DNA of 32,000 nt. It comes from Planctomycetota bacterium. GTDB lineage: Bacteria > Planctomycetota > Phycisphaerae > Phycisphaerales > Phycisphaeraceae. The notes under the pieces were generated by a model that searched no databases, was not told the origin of the DNA, and was given only the letters and a program-made list of their open reading frames with translations. This document shows positions 4,593-30,155 of the stretch, piece after piece. The position numbers and the translations under genes were made by a program. Positions within the stretch are counted from its first letter, which is position 1; each line of letters starts with the position of its first letter. The stretch covers positions 16,830 to 48,829 of the forward strand of contig JBCBUE010000020.1 of assembly GCA_039818285.1 (NCBI GenBank), written 5' to 3'.

Positions 4593-5678
4593 GTGCAGCA
4601 ACCCCCCGCACCGACGTTCGACGACGCCGATCAGGGCACGTCGACCCTCGCGATCGTCTCGCTCTGCCTGGCCATCTTCGGCTTCGTCACGATCTGCGCC
4701 GGCGTCGGCGTGGCGGTCTGCCTGGTCGCCCTGATCCTCGGCGTCGTCGCCATGAACAACATCTCCGCCTCGGGCAACCGCCTCGGCGGGCACGGCCTCG
4801 CCCTGGCCGGCACCATCATCGGCGGCGTCGGCACCGCCTCGGCCCTGCTCATCATCCCCCTGATGATCGGCATCATGCTCCCCGCGCTCGGCGCCGCCCG
4901 ACGCACCGCCCGCCAGATGCAAAACAACACCCAGGTCCGCGGCATCCACCAGTCCATGGTGATGTATGCCCAGTCCAACAACTCGATGTTCCCCGGCCTC
5001 ACCCCCGACGGCAACGTCCTCGTCGACGCCAATACCCCCTACCCCGGCGGCGTCAACGGCGGCCACCCCGCCGAGCGACTCGAACTGCTCCTCGACGGCA
5101 ACTACTTCACCGGCGAATACGCCATCTCCCCGGTCGAGACCGGCCTGACCGAATGGCAAGGCGGCCAGGTCAACGAAGACAACTACTCTTACGCCATGCT
5201 CCGCATCGCCGCCGGCAACACCGGCAGCCAGACCTGGCGCAAGCCCCCCGGTCAGCCCGCCCCCCGCTCCGGGTTGTACGGCAACCAGCCCGTCGAACCC
5301 ATGAGCGACAGCGTCTCCGAGTGGTCCGAAACCCTCAACACCGAGGCCCCCGTCCTTGGCGACCGCAACACCGGCGCCGACGCCACCACCCAGGTCTCCT
5401 CCATCCACACCCCGCTCAACTCCGGCGACTGGCGCGGCAGCGTCGCCTGGAACGACAACCACGTCGTTTTCGAGACCTACCAGACCCTGAGCACGCGCTT
5501 CGGCAGCGGCCCGTACAACGACAACTTCAGCGGCACCGGCGACAACCTCTTCGTCGACAGCGACGGCGCCCCCCTCTCCGGCAACGGCGTCGCCAACGCC
5601 GCCTGGGTCTATTCCGACGCCGTCACGTATGTCGACCAGCAGCCCAGCCTGGGCACGGCGGACAGCAGCCCGCAGTAG
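4593..5678 (+). CDS. pseudopilin-like (DUF1559 / H-X9-DG-type) protein with a DUF4190-like N-terminal membrane module
   Basis: GGAGG at 4582-4586 precedes GTG at 4593. The N-terminus (LAIVSLCLAIFGF...LILGVVAMNNISASGNRLGGHGLALAGTIIGGVG) is DUF4190-like. Next comes IMLPALGAARRTARQMQNNTQVRGIHQSMVMYAQSNN, typical of planctomycetal type II pseudopilin-like proteins. The C-terminus has IHTPLNSGDWRGSVAWNDNHVVF, an H-X9-GS variant of H-X9-DG. Confidence 0.6.
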   Translation: MQQPPAPTFDDADQGTSTLAIVSLCLAIFGFVTICAGVGVAVCLVALILGVVAMNNISASGNRLGGHGLALAGTIIGGVGTASALLIIPLMIGIMLPALGAARRTARQMQNNTQVRGIHQSMVMYAQSNNSMFPGLTPDGNVLVDANTPYPGGVNGGHPAERLELLLDGNYFTGEYAISPVETGLTEWQGGQVNEDNYSYAMLRIAAGNTGSQTWRKPPGQPAPRSGLYGNQPVEPMSDSVSEWSETLNTEAPVLGDRNTGADATTQVSSIHTPLNSGDWRGSVAWNDNHVVFETYQTLSTRFGSGPYNDNFSGTGDNLFVDSDGAPLSGNGVANAAWVYSDAVTYVDQQPSLGTADSSPQ

Positions 5679-5773
5679 GTCTCCGACCGAGTCGGCTTAG
5701 TTCGTTTGCCTGACATTGATTGATAGACCGTTTGATGGACACTCTTCCATCGATCACGAATAACAGTCCGGGG

Positions 5774-5801
5774 TGTCTTGCAAACGACCGTTTGTGATAC
5801 A
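5774..5801. other. crossover-site-like palindrome (13-nt inverted half-sites around a 2-nt core)
   Basis: TGTCTTGCAAACG-AC-CGTTTGTGATACA, with 10/13 half-site symmetry, lies about 20 nt upstream of the recombinase remnant. Further direct copies of the half-site CGTTTG-N4-5-ACA occur at 5703-5715 and 5729-5741. Confidence 0.35.
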
Positions 5802-5819
5802 CCAACAGAAGGGGGCTAA

Positions 5820-5942
5820 CCCACGCTCATCGGCTATGCCCGCGTCTCCAAAGCGGACCGCTCCCAATCCCTGGACCTCCAACGTGACGCCCTCGTCGCC
5901 GCCGTTCTAGAACGCACGAGCAGAAAAACTCGGGCTAGTTGA
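5820..5942 (+). pseudogene. serine recombinase (resolvase/invertase) N-terminal remnant, no start codon, truncated after ~27 codons
   Basis: Translation PTLIGYARVSKADRSQSLDLQRDALVAA carries the catalytic-serine motif GYARVS of small serine recombinases. An in-frame TAA (5817-5819) lies immediately upstream, so there is no start. Homology ends near 5903 and the frame runs into unrelated sequence up to TGA at 5940-5942. Confidence 0.6.
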
Positions 5943-6564
5943 AACTACTTCTTTTCCGATACCGACGGACAAGCAGAAGAGTACCGATAACACAGAGCGT
6001 TGCCGACCCTGGCTCGGGGACTACGTTAAGTGTAAACGTGTCGCGCCCGATTGCCGTTTCCCAACTCCATTCATAGCTTCCAGGCTCAATCCCTAGCGAA
6101 CTAAAAGAGGTGTTCTCATAGGTAGCTGAACCAGAAACCGGGGTACCTTCGACGTAATTTTCAGGCAAAAGTAAGAAAAATTGGCTTCTGAACCCAAGGC
6201 CGAAGAAATCACCCGAAGAAGAAGAAGCGGCTGTGACGTTCAATCCAGGCCCGATTGCAGTTGGCCCGGTGAACTGGGGCGTTCTAAAAACCGCCTCAAG
6301 TCCAGGATTAGTTGTTGAATTAGCGTCACCGCCTAGAACCACAGCGGCGAATGGATATATGGCTGGATTGCTTGTTGGAAGTACCGACACCGGTTCAAGT
6401 GGGTTTACAACAGCGCTTATGTCAGGCGTACCCCCGCCGGAGAAAACGATGTCATTGCCAACAGGCACCGCATTGACGACGATAGCAGCTTCGGAAGTGC
6501 TGGAAGCACAGGCGATTGTTGCCAAAACAATGATTTGCAAGGCCGAGCTTTTATTTCGCATCAT
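5935..6564 (-). CDS. PEP-CTERM sorting-domain secreted protein
   Basis: GGAGA lies 7 nt upstream of ATGATG. The signal peptide is MMRNKSSALQIIVLATIACASSTSEAA. The C-terminus VPEPGSATLCVIGTLLLVRRYRKR shows PEP motif, TM helix and basic tail. The gene is low in G+C. Confidence 0.8.
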   Translation of the reverse strand: MMRNKSSALQIIVLATIACASSTSEAAIVVNAVPVGNDIVFSGGGTPDISAVVNPLEPVSVLPTSNPAIYPFAAVVLGGDANSTTNPGLEAVFRTPQFTGPTAIGPGLNVTAASSSSGDFFGLGFRSQFFLLLPENYVEGTPVSGSATYENTSFSSLGIEPGSYEWSWETAIGRDTFTLNVVPEPGSATLCVIGTLLLVRRYRKRSSFN

Positions 6565-6775
6565 CTCTTATCTCCACGATACGGAGTACGATACAGCATT
6601 TCTCGATTTTGCGACTTGGGTCAAGTTAAATTCGGGATAGTATTTGGTTCGAGCGTGTCTGAACTGCAGCAACCCAGACAGCGCCACGAGGTCCACACTA
6701 GCGAGTAATCCAGATTCTCTCATTCGCAATTGAACATAAGCGAAATACTCTGACTACTCCCAGCACCATAAGTCG

Positions 6776-10552
<3,777 letters not shown>

Positions 10553-23609: not shown

Positions 23610-25370
23610 ATGCCCGACGCGCCCGCCGCCACCTCCACCAAGTCGACCGACGAACTGCTCGCCGACCGCCGGCGGAAGCTCGACAAGCTCCGCGAGCTCG
23701 GGCTCGACCCCTACGGCCAACGCATCGACGGCGTCACCCCCCTCGCCGACGCCCGCGCCCGGTACGACGCCGCGGCCGACGAAGCCCACAAGGCCGACGA
23801 CACCGGCGCCACCGACGACCGCCCCCGCGTCCGCGTCGCCGGCCGCGTCATGCAGCTCCGCCAGATGGGCAACCTCATCTTCGCCTCGCTCCGCGACCCC
23901 TCCGGCGACCTGCAGGTCGCCATCAGCAAGAAAGCGATCGGCGCCGACGCCTTCAAGGCCGCCAAGCTCATCGACTACGCCGACCTCGTCACGGTTCACG
24001 GCCCGCTCGCCACCACCAAGACCGGCGAGGTCACCGTCTGGGCCGAACCGATTGCGGCGACGGAAGACGATTCACCCCGGGTGGAACCCGGGGCTAATGG
24101 CACGGACCCCGGCTTTGCCATCACCAGCAAGTCCCTCGCCCTGCCGCCCGACAAGCACAAGGGGCTGACCGACCCCGAAGCCCGCTACCGCAAGCGCTAC
24201 GTCGACCTGCACACCAACCCCGAGGTGATGGCCCTCGCGCAGAAGCGCATCGCCATCATCGACGCCATCCGGCAATACCTGCGCGGCCGGGGCTTCGTCG
24301 AGGTCGAGACGCCGATGCTCCAGGCCATCCACGGCGGGGCCGCCGCCCGACCGTTCACCACGCACCACAACGCCCTGGACCTGCCGCTCACCCTGCGCAT
24401 CGCCCCCGAGCTCTACCTCAAGCGGCTGCTCGTCGCCGGGATGCCCAAGGTCTTCGAGATCAACCGCAACTTCCGCAACGAGGGCGTCAGCCCCCGCCAC
24501 AACCCCGAGTTCACCATGCTCGAGGCCTACGCCGCCTACGGCAACTGGGAGACGATGGCCGAGCTGGTCGAAGACATGGTCTGCACCGTCGCCGAGCAGG
24601 TGTGCGGCGGGTTGGTGATTGAACACGCAGCTGCGTCGCCACGCGACGCTGAAGGAACGGATGAAAACCGCCAAGACGCCAAGAGCGCCAAGGGCCGCAC
24701 GATCGACTTGAGTCGGCCGTGGCGGCGGGTGTCGATGGCCGACTTGGTCGAGGAACGCACAGGGTGGAAGTTTGATAAAGATTTCATCGGGCCCGGCGAA
24801 GTCATCAAAAACGTCCAGCAAGCATACGTTGCAGGCCTCCAGCAAGATCCTGCATATCAAGAGGTAGCTTTCGGCGAGTTCGCTAATCCAAGCAAGCAAT
24901 CTGTGCTCAATCACGAGTACAAGATGAAGTCGCTTGCCTGGATTCAACACATGACTCAATTGACCCCCGCCGAGCAGCTTGTCGAGGTCTACGAGAAGCT
25001 CATCGAGCCGACGCTGATCGACCCGACGTTCGTGACGCGTGTGCCGGGGACGATCATCCCGCTCGCGAAGCGATGCCAAGACGACGATTACTTCGCCGAC
25101 GTGTACGAGTTGGCGATCAACGGCGTCGAGATCAGCCCGGGGTACTCGGAACTGAACGACCCCGATGTGCAGGAGCAGCAATTCCGGCAGCAGGTCGGCG
25201 ACGAGGCGGAGAAGCAGCAGATCGACGAGGACTTCCTTGAGGCCCTGCGCGTCGGCATGCCCCCGGCCGGCGGGATGGGGCTGGGGATCGACCGGCTGAT
25301 CATGATGCTCACCGGCGCCCAGAGCATCCGCGACGTGATCCTATTCCCCCTGATGCGCCCGAGGGATTGA
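23610..25370 (+). CDS. lysS: class II lysyl-tRNA synthetase carrying two lineage-specific insertions
   Basis: RYRKRYVDLHTNPE, FVEVETPMLQAIHGGAAARPFTTHHNALDLPLTLRIAPELYLKRLLVAG, FEINRNFRNEGVSPRHNPEFTMLEAY, ELNDP and GMPPAGGMGLGIDRLIM. At 586 aa it exceeds the ~500 aa typical length. Confidence 0.9.
   Translation: MPDAPAATSTKSTDELLADRRRKLDKLRELGLDPYGQRIDGVTPLADARARYDAAADEAHKADDTGATDDRPRVRVAGRVMQLRQMGNLIFASLRDPSGDLQVAISKKAIGADAFKAAKLIDYADLVTVHGPLATTKTGEVTVWAEPIAATEDDSPRVEPGANGTDPGFAITSKSLALPPDKHKGLTDPEARYRKRYVDLHTNPEVMALAQKRIAIIDAIRQYLRGRGFVEVETPMLQAIHGGAAARPFTTHHNALDLPLTLRIAPELYLKRLLVAGMPKVFEINRNFRNEGVSPRHNPEFTMLEAYAAYGNWETMAELVEDMVCTVAEQVCGGLVIEHAAASPRDAEGTDENRQDAKSAKGRTIDLSRPWRRVSMADLVEERTGWKFDKDFIGPGEVIKNVQQAYVAGLQQDPAYQEVAFGEFANPSKQSVLNHEYKMKSLAWIQHMTQLTPAEQLVEVYEKLIEPTLIDPTFVTRVPGTIIPLAKRCQDDDYFADVYELAINGVEISPGYSELNDPDVQEQQFRQQVGDEAEKQQIDEDFLEALRVGMPPAGGMGLGIDRLIMMLTGAQSIRDVILFPLMRPRD
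24668..24692. repeat. degenerate tandem octamer repeat inside lysS (CCGCCAAG ACGCCAAG AGCGCCAAG)
   Basis: It uses the same ACGCCAAG unit that builds the inverted repeat arms at 25386-25417 and 25812-25843. It encodes ...RQDAKSAKG... within a low-G+C insertion. Confidence 0.7.
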
Positions 25371-25371
25371 G

Positions 25372-25806
25372 GTGGATCGGTTGGAACGCCAAGACGCCAA
25401 GACGCCAAGACGCCAAGAACCGAGCGAGTTGCTCGACGAGTTGGCGCGGCGGGTGATCGGGTGTGCGATCGAGGTTCATCGTGAGCTTGGGCCGGGGTTT
25501 CCAGAATCCGTGTACGAAGAGTCGCTGTCGATCGCGCTGACCGACGCTGGGATTCGGTTTGAACGGCAGCCCAGAGTGAACGTGTATTTCCGTGAACGCT
25601 TGGTCGGTCAGGGCCAGCTCGATTTGTGGATCGAACGTCAACTCGTGGTCGAACTCAAAGCGGTGGAGCAGGTCGCCCCGAAACACAAAGCCCAGGTCAA
25701 CGCCTATCTCGCCGCCACCGGCAACCACCTCGGGCTGCTGATCAACTTCCACGAAGCCGTCCTGAAAGACGGCATCACCCGCATCGTCAATACCCCGCCC
25801 GACTAG
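25372..25806 (+). CDS. GxxExxY protein (PD-(D/E)XK nuclease superfamily, PDDEXK_3-like)
   Basis: RRVIGCAIEVHRELGPGFPESVYEESL holds the GxxExxY motif. QLDLWIERQLVVELKAV is a D...E-x-K nuclease-like core, followed by GLLINF. GTG at 25372 is the maximal start. An in-frame TTG at 25429 gives a 125-aa product of typical family size. Confidence 0.85.
   Translation: MDRLERQDAKTPRRQEPSELLDELARRVIGCAIEVHRELGPGFPESVYEESLSIALTDAGIRFERQPRVNVYFRERLVGQGQLDLWIERQLVVELKAVEQVAPKHKAQVNAYLAATGNHLGLLINFHEAVLKDGITRIVNTPPD
25386..25417. repeat. left inverted-repeat arm, (ACGCCAAG)x4
   Basis: Four perfect contiguous octamers, starting 15 nt after the lysS stop. Confidence 0.95.
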
Positions 25807-25811
25807 CCCGA

Positions 25812-25843
25812 CTTGGCGTCTTGGCGTCTTGGCGTCTTGGCGT
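25812..25843. repeat. right inverted-repeat arm, (CTTGGCGT)x4
   Basis: Exact reverse complement of 25386-25417. It starts 5 nt after the GxxExxY stop and ends 15 nt before the lolE-like ATG. Confidence 0.95.
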
Positions 25844-25858
25844 TGCCTCAGCTACCCC

Positions 25859-27340
25859 ATGTACGTCCTGCTGCTCATCTCGAAGTACCTCCGCCGCAAG
25901 CTCGCGCCGCTGTTTGCCTGCCTGGCGGTGGTGTTGTGCACGGCGATGGTGATCATCGTGATGTCGGTGATGGGGGGGTTCCTGGAGATGCTGCGGGCGT
26001 CGGCGCACCGGCTGTCGGGTGACGTGATCGTGCGGGCGGGGTCGATCACGGGGTTCGAGGGGTACGAGGACTTGATCGATCGGCTGGAGGCGTTGCCGGA
26101 GGTGGCGGTGGCGACGCCGGTGATCGACGTGCCGGGGCTGGTGAAGATCGGCCGGTCGTCGATCCCGATCGCGCAGGTGGTGGGGATCGAGCCGGGGGGG
26201 TACGACGCGGTGGTGGGGTACGCGGAGACGATGTACTGGGGGGACGAGCACCGGGTGGCGGAGTTCGAGCATCGGTTCGGGCCGTTGGTCGAGCAGGACG
26301 AGGCGGTGCGTGCCCAGCGGGACCGGATGGGGCAGATGGGGTTCGATCGGTTCGGGGCGGAGCTGGCGGTGCCGGAGCTTTGGCGGCAATGGCCGCAGGA
26401 GCGTCGGGCGGTGTCGGGGGCGATCGTGCCGGGGATCGAGGTGAGCCCGCGCAACGGGCGGGACGAGCAAGGGGCGTACGACTTTCGGTATTCGCTGGCG
26501 CGGGAGGGGGATCGGGTGATCCTGACGGTGCTGCCGTTGACGCGGTCGGGGGGGCTGCTGGAGCCGGAGACGCGGTCGTTTGCGACGGTGAACGAGTTCA
26601 AGTCGGGGTTGTACGAGGTGGACGCGAACCGGGTTTATGTGCCGTTGGGGGTGCTTCAGGGGATGCTGGGGATGGACGAGGGGGTGGCGGTGGACGAGGA
26701 GGGGATGCCAACGGGGGAGGTCATCCCGGCGCGGGTGACGGAGGTGCTGGTGCGTTCGGCGGAGGGGGTGTCGCTGGCGGCGGCGGCCGAGGCGGTGCGG
26801 GCGGCGGTGAACGGGTGGGAGCTGGACCGCGGCACGAGCGTGTTTGTGTGGACGTGGGAGCAGAAGCACGGGGTGCTGCTGAGCGCGGTGGAGAACGAGC
26901 GGGGGCTGGTGACGTTCTTGTTTGCGGTGATCAGCGTCGTGGCGGTGGTGATGGTGGCGACGACGTTCTACATGATCGTCCTGGAGAAGACGCGGGACAT
27001 CGGGACGCTGCGGGCGATCGGGGCGTCGGCATCCGGGATCGCGTTGGTGTTCCTGGGGTACGGGCTGGCGGTGGGGATCATCGGGGCCGGGCTGGGCAGC
27101 GCGCTGGCGACGCTGGTGGTGACGAACCTCAACGGGATCCAGGAGCTGCTGGTGGCGTTGTTCGGGTGGCGGATGTGGAACCCGCAGACGTACTACTTCG
27201 ATCGGATCCCCGACCGGGTGGCGGTGTGGGACATGGCGTGGGTGGCGGCGGGGGCGGTGGTGAGCAGCGTGGCGGGGGCGCTGATCCCGGCGGTGCTGGC
27301 GGCGCGGCAGGACCCGGTGGAGACGCTCCGGTATGAGTGA
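25859..27340 (+). CDS. LolC/LolE-family (FtsX/MacB-type) ABC transporter permease
   Basis: The N-terminus is ISKYLRRKLAPLFACLAVVLCTAMVIIVMSVMGGF. A large periplasmic domain is followed by a C-terminal FtsX-like 3-helix module (FLFAVISVVAVVMVATTFYMIVLEKTRDIGTLRAIGAS). ATG at 25859 is preferred, because the listed start at 25829 lies inside the repeat arm. Confidence 0.8.
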   Translation: MYVLLLISKYLRRKLAPLFACLAVVLCTAMVIIVMSVMGGFLEMLRASAHRLSGDVIVRAGSITGFEGYEDLIDRLEALPEVAVATPVIDVPGLVKIGRSSIPIAQVVGIEPGGYDAVVGYAETMYWGDEHRVAEFEHRFGPLVEQDEAVRAQRDRMGQMGFDRFGAELAVPELWRQWPQERRAVSGAIVPGIEVSPRNGRDEQGAYDFRYSLAREGDRVILTVLPLTRSGGLLEPETRSFATVNEFKSGLYEVDANRVYVPLGVLQGMLGMDEGVAVDEEGMPTGEVIPARVTEVLVRSAEGVSLAAAAEAVRAAVNGWELDRGTSVFVWTWEQKHGVLLSAVENERGLVTFLFAVISVVAVVMVATTFYMIVLEKTRDIGTLRAIGASASGIALVFLGYGLAVGIIGAGLGSALATLVVTNLNGIQELLVALFGWRMWNPQTYYFDRIPDRVAVWDMAWVAAGAVVSSVAGALIPAVLAARQDPVETLRYE

Positions 27341-28025
27341 GTCGGCGTTGATCGAGGCGACGGGGCTGGCCAAGCGGTATCGCTCGGGGTCGAAGACGCT
27401 GGATGTCTTGCGCGGGGTGGACCTGTCGGTGTCGCGTGGGGAGTTTGTGGCGGTGCTGGGGCGGTCGGGTTCGGGCAAGAGCACGCTGTTGCATCTGATG
27501 GGCGGGCTGGATCGGCCGGACGAGGGGGAGGTGACGTACGACGGGCGGACGGTGGTGCGAGCGGGGAAGCGCGGGAGCAACGTGTATCGGCGGTCGGTGG
27601 TGGGGATGGTGTTCCAGGCGTACCACCTGCTGCCGGAGCTGACGGCGACGGAGAACGTGCTGGTGGCGTCGATGCTGCACGGCGGGCCGGTGTGCTGGTG
27701 GCGGCGGCGGGGGCAGGCCAGGGCGCGGGCGGCGGAGTTGCTGGACAAGGTCGGGCTGGCGGACCGGGCGACGCATCGGCCGAACAAGCTGTCGGGCGGC
27801 GAGCGGCAGCGGGTGGCGATCGCGCGGGCGCTGATGAACGCCCCGGCGGTGCTGCTGGCCGACGAGCCGACGGGCAACCTGGACCCCGAGACCGGCGGCG
27901 AGGTCATGGCCGTGATCGAGGCGCTGCACCGCGACGGGCAGACGGTGGTGATGGTGACGCACGACGATGCGATCGCCGACCGGGCGGACCGGCGGGTCGT
28001 GCTGGAGCGGGGGCGGATCGCGTGA
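27333..28025 (+). CDS. lolD: LolD/MacB-type ABC transporter ATP-binding protein
   Basis: Walker A GRSGSGKST, signature LSGGERQRVAIARAL and Walker B LLADEPTGNLD. The start overlaps the permease stop (ATGAGTGA). Confidence 0.85.
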   Translation: MSESALIEATGLAKRYRSGSKTLDVLRGVDLSVSRGEFVAVLGRSGSGKSTLLHLMGGLDRPDEGEVTYDGRTVVRAGKRGSNVYRRSVVGMVFQAYHLLPELTATENVLVASMLHGGPVCWWRRRGQARARAAELLDKVGLADRATHRPNKLSGGERQRVAIARALMNAPAVLLADEPTGNLDPETGGEVMAVIEALHRDGQTVVMVTHDDAIADRADRRVVLERGRIA

Positions 28026-28030
28026 TGGCA

Positions 28031-28105
28031 GATTCATGATTTGCGATTTCAGGTTGGAGTCGGCATCGGGGGCCGTCTGAAATCTGACATCGCCCATCTG
28101 AAATC
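28031..28105. repeat. ORF-less hairpin built from inverted tandem heptamers
   Basis: The left arm is GATTCAT GATTTGC GATTTCA (28031-28051). The right arm is TGAAATC TGACATC GCCCATC TGAAATC (28078-28105), the reverse complement of GATTTCA-type units. The 8-bp perfect core is GATTTCAG/CTGAAATC, and the arms are 26 nt apart (24-nt loop once the 8-bp core is paired). Confidence 0.8.
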
Positions 28106-28124
28106 CCCTACCCTGTCGGGCTCG

Positions 28125-28862
28125 ATGTACATCCTCAAGGTCAACAACCTGGTGAAGGCCTACGCCAAGCGGCGGGTGGTGGATCGTGTGAGCTTCGTGG
28201 TCGAGGAGGGGGAGATCGTGGGGCTGCTGGGGCGGAACGGGGCGGGGAAGACGACGAGCTTTCGCATGACGACCGGGATGCTGACGCCCGAGGAGGGGCA
28301 GGTGCTCTTCGGCGGGCAGGACGTGACGCGGCTGGCGATGTACCAGCGGGCGCAGCTGGGGATGGGGTACTTGAGCCAGGAGCCGTCGATCTTCCAGCGG
28401 CTGACGGTGGAGCAGAACCTGCACGCGATCCTGGAGACGCGGCCGATGACGCGGGTCGAGCGCCGGCAGCGGGCCGAGGAGTTGCTCGAGCAGTTCGGGC
28501 TGACGAAGATCCGCCGCCAGCAGGCGCGGCTGTGCTCGGGCGGGGAGAAGCGTCGGCTGGAGATCGCGCGGGCGCTGATCACCGAGCCGAGCCTCGTGCT
28601 GCTGGACGAGCCGTTCGCGGGGGTCGATCCGCTGGCGGTGGAGGGGCTGCAGGACGAACTGCGTGCGTTGCGCGACCGGCTGGGGATCGCGATGCTGATC
28701 ACGGACCACAACGTGCACCACATCCTGGCCGTGTGCGATCGGGTGTACGTGATCTCCGACGGGCAGGTGTTCGCGGAGGGCACGCCCAAGGAGATCATCA
28801 ACAACGAGGCCGTGAAGCGGTCGTACCTGGGGTCGACGTTCCGCGGGGACGAGTTCGGATAA
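28125..28862 (+). CDS. lptB: LPS export ABC transporter ATP-binding protein
   Basis: GLLGRNGAGKTT, LGMGYLSQEPSIFQRLTVEQN, SGGEKRRLEIARAL, LLDEPFAGVDPLAV, ITDHNV and a C-terminal YLGSTF tail typical of LptB. ATG at 28125 is preferred over TTG at 28041, which reads through the heptamer repeats. Confidence 0.85.
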   Translation: MYILKVNNLVKAYAKRRVVDRVSFVVEEGEIVGLLGRNGAGKTTSFRMTTGMLTPEEGQVLFGGQDVTRLAMYQRAQLGMGYLSQEPSIFQRLTVEQNLHAILETRPMTRVERRQRAEELLEQFGLTKIRRQQARLCSGGEKRRLEIARALITEPSLVLLDEPFAGVDPLAVEGLQDELRALRDRLGIAMLITDHNVHHILAVCDRVYVISDGQVFAEGTPKEIINNEAVKRSYLGSTFRGDEFG

Positions 28863-28885
28863 GTCTTCAGTCCGGGCTCGATATC

Positions 28886-28912
28886 ATGCCTGCGCAAGCG
28901 GGCATTCACGCC
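28886..28912. repeat. left arm of 27-nt inverted repeat (ATGCCTGCGCAAGCGGGCATTCACGCC)
   Basis: It matches the reverse complement of 29227-29253 at 24/27 positions. Its first 20 nt are themselves a hairpin (ATGCCTGC-GCAA-GCGGGCAT). Confidence 0.85.
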
Positions 28913-28930
28913 CCCGCCTACGTTAAGCGC

Positions 28931-29227
28931 ATGAGTTCCGGGACGCGTGTCTACGCGGTGTACATCGTTACCAATCGCCGCCATGGAACGCTCTACGTCG
29001 GCATGACCGGTGACCTTAAAGTTCGCATCTACCAACACCGTGAGGGCGTTGTGGATGGGTTTTCGCGTCGATATGCCATGAAACAGCTGGTCTGGTACGA
29101 GCTTCACGCCACCGCGGAGGCGGTGATCATCCGGGAGAAGCGGATCAAATCGTGGAAGCGCGAGTGGAAAATTCAATTGATCGAAGAGATGAACTCCGAG
29201 CGGGCGGACCTGTTCACTCGGCTGTAG
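28931..29227 (+). CDS. small GIY-YIG nuclease family protein (COG2827/YhbQ-like)
   Basis: VYAVYIVTNRRHGTLYVGMTGDLKVRIYQHREG...LVWYE...REKRIKSWKREWKIQLIEEMN. An in-frame ATG at 28886 inside the left repeat arm is an alternative start. Confidence 0.85.
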   Translation: MSSGTRVYAVYIVTNRRHGTLYVGMTGDLKVRIYQHREGVVDGFSRRYAMKQLVWYELHATAEAVIIREKRIKSWKREWKIQLIEEMNSERADLFTRL

Positions 29228-29253
29228 GCGTGGATGCCTGCTTTCGCAGGCAT
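29227..29253. repeat. right arm of 27-nt inverted repeat (GGCGTGGATGCCTGCTTTCGCAGGCAT)
   Basis: It overlaps the last base of the GIY-YIG stop codon. It contains the perfect hairpin ATGCCTGC-TTTC-GCAGGCAT, and in one frame reads WMPAFAGMT. Confidence 0.85.
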
Positions 29254-29285
29254 GACGCGGTGGCAAGGAAATGTGAGATGATGCC

Positions 29286-30155
29286 GTGATGGTCGGTCGA
29301 CCCGAGAACGATCTCAAAGATAAGTCGCGGGGCGAGCGGTTGCAGAAGGTGCTGGCCGCGGCGGGGGTGGCGTCGCGGCGGGAGTGCGAGGCGATGATCG
29401 CCGAGGGGCGGGTCGCGGTGAACGGCGAGGTGATCATGGACCTGCCGGCGTGGGTCGACCCCGAGAAAGACAAGATCGCGATCGACGATCGGCCGATCCG
29501 CGGGCAGGGGCGCGGGCGGCGGCGAGGGACGATGCAGCGGCTCGTGTACGTGATGGTCAACAAGCCGCGACGCGTGATCTCGACGGCGGAGGACCCCGAC
29601 GGGCGGCAGACCGTGCTCGACCTCGTGCCGGGCGCGGTGAAGGAACGGCTGTACCCCGTGGGCCGGCTGGACGCCGACTCGACCGGGCTGATCCTGCTGA
29701 CGAACCACGGCGAGCTGGCGAACCGGCTGACGCACCCGCGGTACGAGGTGAGCAAGGCGTATCGCGTGAGCGTGCGCGGCCGGCTGGAGGCCGACGACAT
29801 CGTCCGGCTGCGGGACGGGCTGGTGCTGACCGACAAGCGGACGCTGGGGCGGGACGGTCGGTCGACGCGCGGGAAGGTCGGGGTAAAGCGGGCGGCGGTC
29901 GAGGCGGTGCGGGTGCTGAGGCGCGACCGGGACAGCAACGGCGAGGACCGCACGGTGCTGATGGTCACGCTGGCCGAGGGGCAGAACCGCGAGGTCCGGC
30001 GGCTGATGGCCCGGCTGGGGCTGAAGGTCCGCAAGCTACATCGCACGGCGATCGGGCCGTTGCGGCTCAAGGGGCTGGCGATCGGCGGGTCTCGGGCGTT
30101 GACGGTGGCCGAGAAGCGGGAGCTGCTCAAGGCGGCGGGGCTGGCGCGGCGTTGA
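29286..30155 (+). CDS. rluB: RsuA/RluB-family 23S rRNA pseudouridine synthase with S4 domain
   Basis: S4 domain ERLQKVLAAAGVASRRECEAMIAEGRVAVNG. Catalytic region VMVNKPRRVIST...LYPVGRLDADSTGLILLTNHGELANRLTHPRYEVSKAYRV. Start is GTG at 29286 or ATG at 29289. Confidence 0.85.
   Translation: MMVGRPENDLKDKSRGERLQKVLAAAGVASRRECEAMIAEGRVAVNGEVIMDLPAWVDPEKDKIAIDDRPIRGQGRGRRRGTMQRLVYVMVNKPRRVISTAEDPDGRQTVLDLVPGAVKERLYPVGRLDADSTGLILLTNHGELANRLTHPRYEVSKAYRVSVRGRLEADDIVRLRDGLVLTDKRTLGRDGRSTRGKVGVKRAAVEAVRVLRRDRDSNGEDRTVLMVTLAEGQNREVRRLMARLGLKVRKLHRTAIGPLRLKGLAIGGSRALTVAEKRELLKAAGLARR

Follow-up and report, generated by a model that had tools for sequence, protein, structure and literature searches.

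What occupies the spacers between the core genes of a planctomycete locus, and how do small nuclease genes enclosed by inverted repeats come to lie there? This question is raised by a 32,000-nucleotide stretch of contig JBCBUE010000020.1 (GenBank assembly GCA_039818285.1, Planctomycetota bacterium), hereafter called the window. Here, lysS, a lolE-like gene, lolD, lptB and rluB follow each other on the forward strand, and three of their spacers hold unusual sequences: cassette (i) between lysS and lolE (25385-25844) contains an open reading frame (ORF) for a GxxExxY protein, element (ii) between lolD and lptB contains none, and cassette (iii) between lptB and rluB encodes a GIY-YIG protein. An earlier note, made from the sequence alone, had taken all three for members of one family of hairpin-bounded cassettes. 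We now think it fairly probable that the spacers hold two different nuclease-plus-cognate-repeat families and one decayed ORF-less relative, with GxxExxY spreading via its arrays.

Cassette (i) is bounded by two arms of 33 nt that are 100% complementary. Both arms consist of four tandem octamers (ACGCCAAG, the array also being written as (CGCCAAGN)n) without self-complementarity, and the octamer is found 11 times in the window compared with 1.0 expected (all copy counts for this genome cover the 32-kb window). The RNA of the cassette is predicted to fold with z = -6.9 into a perfect 33-bp stem. Arms of four units around a GxxExxY ORF had already been described in the earlier note, and they proved to be stronger than claimed. 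Given arms of this perfection and an octamer in such excess, the probability that we are dealing with chance matches or assembly artefacts is negligible. Dozens of independent assemblies, as well as finished plasmids of cultured isolates, show the same build, which refutes this explanation for cassettes (i) and (iii); only element (ii), taken by itself, equals shuffled sequence in folding energy.

The ORF between these arms exceeds the curated cutoffs of both TIGR04256 (128.2 bits, cutoff 35) and PF13366 (127.3 bits, cutoff 22). Judged by its sequence, its start is likely the TTG at 25381, which is homologous to an ATG-AAC in the relatives, with a GTG at 25372 as the alternative. An AlphaFold2 model of the protein (predicted local distance difference test score 95.5) found its best Foldseek matches in Cas4 SSO0001 and lambda exonuclease at a template-modelling score of ~0.55. 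In an alignment of 18 sequences, D63, E73 and K75 are invariant, and the catalytic D and E-x-K are intact. We therefore predict from the model, with high confidence, that the GxxExxY protein is a minimal Cas4-like PD-(D/E)XK nuclease. A sequence search of the PDB retrieved no relative, and PADLOC and PHROGs returned weak similarity to the Cas4 core only, on which ground the reading as a known defence component was set aside. Compared with its counterpart in the close relative L028, the ORF shows a ratio of nonsynonymous to synonymous substitution rates (dN/dS) of 0.11, indicating purifying selection. Its dS of 0.26 (window 25381-25803 against L028 6001-6423) compares with 0.085 for the flanking genes lolE and lptB, a threefold difference that could stem from less codon constraint or from an exchange with another copy of the cassette.

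How stable is the occupation of this spacer? We compared 27 orthologous loci, fetched with the permease as query, and additionally L028, which shares ~95% DNA identity with the window (loci are given L numbers throughout); the nearest relatives of the window are metagenome-assembled genomes (MAGs) of the Phycisphaeraceae (Planctomycetota). The window, L028 and L003 have the same octamer arms in the lysS-lolE spacer, enclosing a GxxExxY ORF, and the encoded proteins are 94% (L028) and 75% (L003) identical to that of the window. In L007 and L014, the spacer harbors a GxxExxY gene with other units (ACACCAAG, CACAGAG). ORF-less hairpins occupy it in L001, L002, L004, L005 and L011; in four of these the arms are composed of tandem 7-10-nt units (CGCAGATGAA, CACAGATN, GCGGAG and GGCANGAA), and the spacer of L005 contains a perfect inverted repeat of 26 nt with arms that are palindromic themselves. 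The spacer of more distant loci is free of repeats. A 0.78-kb insert without a hairpin, apparently containing two small ORFs, lies in the same spacer of the more distant L015 (1424-2202).

Most ORF-less hairpins of the orthologous spacers have units of the pattern CRCNRAG. In 327 kb of Phycisphaerae loci, we counted 20 arrays of at least three CRCNRAK units, compared with 0.25 expected (~80-fold), and arrays of this type are paired inversely in the orthologous spacers of L001, L002, L004, L011 and L028. An insertion can be delimited at the overlap of lolE and lolD (ATGAGTGA): L028 carries a 106-nt tandem-heptamer hairpin there (7961-8064), made of (CATGGAG)3.5 and degenerate inverted units, where the window shows the empty site TGAG (27338-27341) and L001 is empty, too. 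TGAG stands at both ends of the insertion, an observation for which alignment ambiguity is possible, and the insertion provides a new in-frame start for lolD. The earlier note had named a lack of presence/absence variation among orthologous spacers as refuting its idea; such variation is clearly there, and the idea survives this test. Relatives also have ORF-less versions in these spacers. The cassettes are discrete units that are present, absent or replaced among close relatives, as the earlier note had supposed, and they behave as mobile or rapidly replaced DNA.

Single arrays are also found outside the spacers. The window has one in frame within lysS, and its first 27 nt are the 27 nt common to the commonest left arms of GxxExxY cassettes (L036, L062, L072); the lysS genes of L028 and L001 lack it. 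At the same lysS loop, L004 and L001 encode TEGTE, derived from (CACAGAG)n. The surrounding part of lysS in the window (24624-24949) has a low G+C content (down to 46%) and cannot be aligned with L028, though its flanks are ~95% identical, and relatives carry different insertions at this position; it is a hypervariable loop that has probably recombined. Within lysS of L011 (1870-1990), there is an in-frame inverted repeat with 44-nt arms (89% complementary), which encodes a Gly/Glu/Pro-rich loop and resembles Rickettsia palindromic elements. L001 and L002 come from one MAG bin (P01_F01_bin.24) and represent two diverged versions of the gene cluster: their lolE genes are 85% and 61% identical to that of the window, respectively, and lptB is 98% identical in both. 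Either the bin is mixed, or the region is a mosaic produced by recombination.

Is this combination of gene and arms restricted to the Phycisphaerae? Close GxxExxY homologues from several phyla begin with M-N-R-Q-D-A-K, the translated left arm. Metagenome contigs were scanned with a seed alignment of the protein core only, to avoid a bias toward the left arm. At a minimum score of 14 (mismatch -2), inverted arms bracket the ORF in 45 of the 67 metagenome loci for which both flanks were present; a milder mismatch penalty (-1.5), together with the addition of the window, L003, L007 and L028, gives 53 of 71 loci. In a permuted control 19% of pairs scored as arms, a value inflated by the CGCCAAG units that many loci share. 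The median distance from arm to arm is 446 nt. The usual arms are AACC(GCCAAGNN)3 or variants with CACAGAG, CGCAGAG, CACGAAG or CGCGGAG, for which CRCNRAG is the common pattern; an array comprises 3-4 such units, the left arm beginning at the start codon.

On finished plasmids of isolates, three of four GxxExxY genes have the same arms and lie in short spacers between co-directional core genes; the sites from isolates include fabD-X-fabG in Sphingomonas, radA-X in Bacteroides finegoldii and ade-X-manC in Bernardetia. Among the metagenome cassettes, 14 of 34 have both neighbors in the same direction by a crude ORF proxy, a modest enrichment. None of 40 loci checked has its GxxExxY gene inside an rRNA gene, and three have nearby tRNA only. 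Three metagenomic loci (L034, L045 and L051) have in common an identical-scoring tRNA gene ~150-190 nt downstream of the GxxExxY ORF.

Could such structures instead have grown in place? Heptamers might expand by replication slippage and palindromes be maintained by intra-strand repair, the structures acting as terminators, attenuators or in mRNA stability and the ORFs being passengers. The units do vary from genome to genome at the same site, where the outermost bases TTGGAAC...GTT are shared, in the L028 insertion a perfect left arm faces a degenerate right arm, heptamer copy number differs among Coxiella strains (Warrier et al. 2016, PMC4990558), and Xanthomonas has ORF-less convergent heptamer arrays (PMC4692102), all in agreement with this view. 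However, the 106-nt insertion of L028 and the 450-nt presence or absence of cassette (iii) amount to new sequence, not expansion. For passengers, so tight a phylum-spanning link between a single protein family and a single unit motif is unexpected, and the hairpins have no U-tract. Home-grown structures of this kind thus seem quite unlikely to us.

As far as the sequences tell, the unit sequence CRCNRAG is conserved across phyla, beyond the need for pairing. By analogy to Ssn with its SRM repeats and to RAYT with REP (repetitive extragenic palindrome) sequences, we propose that the GxxExxY nuclease recognises heptamer arrays, which it might read as iterated binding sites or as a hairpin or cruciform of DNA. 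Cutting by the nuclease, with subsequent repair or recombination by the host, would spread, replace and erode the cassettes. Leftovers of this activity would include ORF-less hairpins, such as element (ii) and those of the relatives, as well as solo arrays including the in-frame one of lysS. As a side effect, read-through RNA of cassette (i) with its perfect stem would be a substrate of RNase III, as in the intervening sequences (IVSs) of 23S rRNA, and such processing of the stems is plausible by this analogy.

A rival explanation, in line with the earlier note, places the function itself on the RNA level: the stem would be made for RNase III, which excises the RNA of the ORF and insulates the cistrons, and on this view the proteins would not recognise the arms. 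Apart from the stem of cassette (i), the long-range arms of cassette (iii) pair in the minimum-free-energy fold (z = -2.3), and the start codon of cassette (i) lies at the base of the stem, like the Shine-Dalgarno sequence and start of the Coxiella IVS that RNase III cuts (PMC4990558). Promoter and terminator scans predicted none within either cassette, and isolate cassettes occupy short spacers that separate co-directional core genes. On the other hand, the conserved unit sequence is not explained by pairing alone, and the mismatches in the arms show no excess of G.U on the sense strand (39 versus 39). Neither solo arrays nor in-frame inserts in lysS can serve as processing stems, many cassettes from metagenomes are not oriented like their neighbors, selection in cassette (iii) is on the local hairpins, as described below, and the characterised Ssn acts on single-stranded DNA and not on RNA (PMC11893778). 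Processing as a side effect is still compatible with the mismatch result and with the substrate of Ssn. An insert made for RNA processing is therefore rather unlikely, and we retain recognition of the arrays on the DNA level as the preferred explanation.

Cassette (iii) is built differently. Its arms (28884-28912 and 29227-29255) are 29 nt long and 90% complementary, compared with the 27 nt (24/27) given in the earlier note, which had correctly placed inverted arms around a GIY-YIG ORF. Each arm is a small palindrome by itself, ATGCCTGC-N4-GC(A/G)GGCAT; the hairpin reads CGTCATGCCTGCGAAAGCAGGCATCCA, and the left arm is a variant of it. The right unit shows every feature by which CGTC-1 repeats are defined, that is, the CGTC tag, an 8-bp stem starting with AT, a 4-nt loop and a CCA tail. 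The tags point outward, and the window contains two copies of the hairpin. The one architecture proposed for both cassettes thus did not hold: cassette (i) has long-range tandem arms and cassette (iii) two self-folding CGTC-type REP hairpins, and from these distinct builds we conclude that the cassettes belong to two families, each having repeats of its own.

The 98-aa GIY-YIG protein has no family in NCBIfam and only weak similarity to UPF0213 (1zg2, E=0.34). Homologues from Devosia, Lacibacterium and Massilia share 48-62% identity with it, and in all three cases examined, hairpins of the NTS/SRM type flank the gene, as they do in L001. The left hairpin of the Massilia gene (48% protein identity), CGTCATTCCCGCGAAGGCGGGAATCCAAG, agrees with the NTS consensus in 27 of 28 positions; its right arm is more divergent. 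Chenal et al. (2025, Nat Commun) demonstrated that small GIY-YIG proteins of the Ssn family (cd10448) are site-specific endonucleases for single-stranded DNA, which cut next to hairpin repeats (NTS, CGTCATTCCCGCGMAVGCGGGAATCYRG) and do not cut double-stranded DNA or RNA (PMC11893778). The ssn genes are typically flanked by these repeats, and NTS-ssnA-NTS has the architecture of an insertion sequence (PMC11893778). The spacing of Y11, Y22 and E69 in the window protein equals that of the catalytic Y6, Y17 and E64 of SsnA. Two compensatory pairs distinguish the right hairpin of L001 from the left one; they keep the local stem and weaken pairing from arm to arm, indicating preservation of the local hairpin, as expected if the individual hairpin is the unit that matters. 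By its sequence, cassette (iii) is probably an SRM-ssn-SRM unit of the Ssn type, a kind already described (PMC11893778), and the statement of the earlier note that no mechanistic description was known falls for this cassette.

The site of cassette (iii) is highly variable as well. In L028, the lptB-rluB junction measures 19 nt only, and the flanking genes are ~95% identical to those of the window. The cassette of L001 encodes a protein of only 59% identity next to an lptB of 98% identity, and the junction is filled by unrelated genes in L002 and L004. The junction is a general insertion hot spot. The ORF at 4533-5639 of L002 reads like an enolase-superfamily enzyme and that at 9644-11134 of L004 like a radical SAM protein.

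Presence and absence between strains of ~95% identity argue against an essential role and thereby bear on another idea, that the nucleases are domesticated and serve the host instead of being selfish elements, either by controlling incoming single-stranded DNA in transformation or as accessories of defence operons. Neisseria SsnA indeed modulates transformation via the NTS repeats (PMC11893778), four-helix-bundle cassettes are found inside DISARM-like and DUF1156/Swt1 operons, and the GxxExxY ORF is under purifying selection. The PADLOC result, with its weak Cas4-core similarity, speaks against domestication, which is moreover compatible with our preferred explanation and does not compete with it exclusively. 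As the general account of these cassettes, we judge it very unlikely.

For element (ii), the evidence is much thinner. The heptamer GATTTCA occurs in three exact copies within 61 nt, compared with 1.3 expected in the whole window. The “three versus four” inverted heptamers of the earlier note require loose matching: no inverted pair is better than those of 13 nt at 85% and of 11 nt at 91%, and the stem is no better than shuffled sequence (z = -0.24, with 73 of 200 shuffles folding equally well). Compared with the features of MITEs (miniature transposable elements with inverted repeats), it has weak inverted repeats, no ORF and no recognisable duplication. The spacer has a different sequence in each close relative, with perfect 27-nt (GGACGAA)n arms in L001 and, as read from the sequence, a ~28-nt inverted repeat on GCGGAGG units in L028. 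Element (ii) is probably a decayed ORF-less hairpin element.

Taken together, cassettes (i) and (iii) of the earlier note are real and element (ii) is weak in the window. Of the interpretation, the mobile or replaceable nature of the cassettes and the parallel to rRNA IVSs stand, but a single architecture and the lack of a known mechanism for the GIY-YIG cassette do not. For cassette (i), the literature searched contained no mechanistic description and none of its architecture, a coverage that is incomplete and leaves room for an earlier account. Cassette (i) belongs to a widespread type of cassette that seems to be undescribed. Three other types of element were considered and rejected: integron cassettes (there is neither an attC-only 3′ site nor an integrase), free-standing homing endonucleases (the spacers all differ, and no conserved target can be identified) and toxin-antitoxin pairs (the cassettes have one ORF each).

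Several observations weigh against two repeat-linked nuclease families with a spreading GxxExxY cassette. A stand-alone nuclease cannot rejoin DNA, so that it does not by itself account for the spread. Neither a target-site duplication nor an empty site turned up for cassette (i), all close relatives having some hairpin in the spacer, and L003, L007 and L014 are occupied at the same site, so vertical inheritance with losses could replace repeated insertion. For copy number our view of this genome is limited to 32 kb; the 40 kb surrounding the Bernardetia cassette contain no additional arrays, indicating that high-copy dispersal is not general. The literature searched, with incomplete coverage, yielded neither biochemistry nor a function for any GxxExxY protein. 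The published SRM search string, HGTCWYN(0-2)YYVSBRHN(0-5)WNVSBRGN(0-2)RNCYNB, does not match the hairpins of cassette (iii), the right arm requiring two substitutions and the left arm failing. The same string matches the arms of L001 and L030 and misses the near-canonical NTS of Massilia. We maintain the Ssn-type assignment despite this failure because of anatomy and homology.

The features of the locus are listed in Table 1. All core genes named in the earlier note were borne out by profile matches. The drop in G+C content it had reported for the three spacers is real (0.54-0.61 compared with 69% for the window), but an inverted repeat in “every” spacer was an overstatement: lolE and lolD overlap, and other spacers of the window contain ordinary 12-bp hairpins or none. 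An Rfam scan of the region gave no match. Elsewhere in the window, positions 5661-6821 form an island of low G+C content (42-55%) with a PEP-CTERM-like ORF on the reverse strand (5935-6564) and, at ~5822-5905 on the forward strand, a sequence that reads as an N-terminal fragment of a serine recombinase. This island is probably the remnant of an integrated element.

Table 1. Features of the lysS-rluB region, in window coordinates
Feature	Position	Strand	Details
lysS (lysine-tRNA ligase)	23610-25370	+	NF001756 E=1.6e-157, TIGR00499; upstream of cassette (i)
Solo array AACCGCCAAGACGCCAAGAGCGCCAAGGGC, in frame within lysS	24665-24694	+	encodes NRQDAKSAKG
Candidate Shine-Dalgarno GAGGTGG for the GxxExxY ORF	25369-25375	+	overlaps lysS stop, outside the stem; inferred from sequence
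GxxExxY / PDDEXK_3 ORF	25381-25806	+	TIGR04256 E=1.9e-37, PF13366 E=4.9e-37
Left arm of cassette (i)	25385-25417	+	A + 4 x ACGCCAAG; translated as N-terminal peptide ERQDAKTPRRQE
Right arm of cassette (i)	25812-25844	+	4 x CTTGGCGT + T; begins 5 nt past the ORF stop
lolC/E-like ABC permease	25859-27340	+	TIGR02212 E=8e-48, under curated cutoff; FtsX + MacB_PCD
lolD-like ATPase	27333-28025	+	TIGR02211 E=9e-67; start overlaps lolE stop
Element (ii)	28024-28105	+	degenerate ORF-less inverted array, ~7-nt units xxCAGAT (first read as GATTTCA)
lptB	28128-28862	+	TIGR04406 E=1e-95, over cutoff
Left CGTC-type REP/SRM hairpin	28882-28908	+	tag TATC, stem ATGCCTGC, loop GCAA, stem GCGGGCAT (one T.G pair), tail TCA
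Ssn-type single-domain GIY-YIG ORF (98 aa)	28931-29227	+	PF01541 E=4e-13, residues 8-81
Right CGTC-type REP/SRM hairpin	29231-29257	-	CGTC-ATGCCTGC-GAAA-GCAGGCAT-CCA; canonical CGTC-1 unit
rluB-like pseudouridine synthase	29286-30155	+	TIGR00093 E=3e-44; downstream of cassette (iii)

To our knowledge, few unexplained small genes of bacteria are as common as those for GxxExxY and “four helix bundle” proteins, and the origin of the 23S rRNA IVSs, the meaning of intergenic heptamers and the enzyme of CGTC-tagged REPs are questions that stood open for decades, the last of them being answered only in 2025. The present locus and its relatives link these puzzles. Each family of small ORFs comes with its own inverted repeats in the spacers of core genes. 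The cassettes are gained, lost and swapped between strains that are ~95% identical in DNA, and ORF-less as well as in-frame derivatives exist.

Among known systems, the 23S rRNA IVSs resemble cassette (i) closely. That of Coxiella is an insert of 428-444 nt with a 28-bp terminal stem and an ORF for a four-helix-bundle protein; three tandem GACAGAT units in the 5′ arm closely precede the ORF, and the first of these repeats is where RNase III cuts (Warrier et al. 2016, PMC4990558). Cassette (i) and its kin share the size of ~430-490 nt, a terminal stem of ~30 bp, a small ORF in the loop that starts at the stem, and tandem heptamers. They differ by their location in mRNA spacers between protein genes and by an ORF of the GxxExxY instead of the four-helix-bundle type. 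The latter type also exists outside rRNA: L007 has a PF05635 ORF (23S_rRNA_IVP, four-helix-bundle) between inverted (CGATTGC)n arrays in a protein-gene spacer, and inverted tandem heptamers flank four of five four-helix-bundle genes on isolate plasmids. With these cassettes and the GACAGAT heptamers in the Coxiella stem, the IVS analogy of the earlier note fits better than it had claimed. On plasmids of Chlorohelix, Planktothrix and Gloeocapsa (L112, L113 and L114), four-helix-bundle cassettes with inverted heptamers are found in defence operons, the sites being drmD-X-MmeI (DISARM-like) and DUF1156-X-Swt1 HEPN.

As a tentative extension, which we consider possible and no more probable than that, GxxExxY and four-helix-bundle heptamer cassettes may form one phylum-spanning mobile class with the 23S rRNA IVSs as its rRNA-resident subset. 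GxxExxY would then be a repeat-specific nuclease for CRCNRAG arrays, the PD-(D/E)XK counterpart of Ssn and RAYT, which seeds ORF-less hairpins, solo arrays and in-frame inserts, and maybe also the intergenic heptamers of other phyla. If GxxExxY is repeat-specific, it would open up, after Ssn, a second large supply of programmable nucleases with specificity for sequence or structure.

The intergenic heptamers of Xanthomonas and Nostoc, whose function is unknown (Rehm et al. 2015, PMC4692102), likewise often form two convergent arrays, and their length varies among close relatives. In contrast to the arrays described here, they were analysed as G-quadruplex formers without a link to an ORF, and their unit is GGGAATC instead of CRCNRAG. 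Rickettsia palindromic elements and intragenic REPs, as cited in PMC3733652, are comparable to the lysS solo array and the L011 hairpin in being in-frame inserts in surface loops of housekeeping proteins; the sequences differ, and the window insert is one arm of a nuclease cassette.

Cassette (iii) finds its closest parallels among REPs. For the CGTC-tagged REPs, which were also reported in Planctomycetes, no dedicated enzyme or transposase gene was found in 2013 (Di Nocera et al. 2013, BMC Genomics, PMC3733652). The hairpins of the window agree with them in the 8-bp stem starting with AT, the 4-nt loop, the CGTC tag and the CCA tail, and in occurring as oppositely oriented pairs between unidirectional genes; but here the pair brackets a GIY-YIG gene, as in the Ssn paper of 2025. 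REPtrons (RAYT plus REP), as outlined in the 2013 paper (PMC3733652), also have an enzyme gene between inverted copies of its repeat and ORF-less pairs in spacers. Their enzyme is an HUH tyrosine transposase of the IS200/IS605 type, whereas those of the window are GIY-YIG and PD-(D/E)XK proteins, and the arms of cassette (i) are tandem and not palindromic. With the Ssn/NTS systems, which are found across phyla, cassette (iii) shares a single-domain GIY-YIG protein of ~100 aa and the layout of an insertion sequence; hairpins of the general type CGTCAT-stem-loop-stem-ATCC lie on both sides of its gene, as variants that fail the published search string, and its right hairpin resembles the NTS. 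It differs from them in the stem sequence ATGCCTGC, in the TATC tag on the left and in its two copies in 32 kb.

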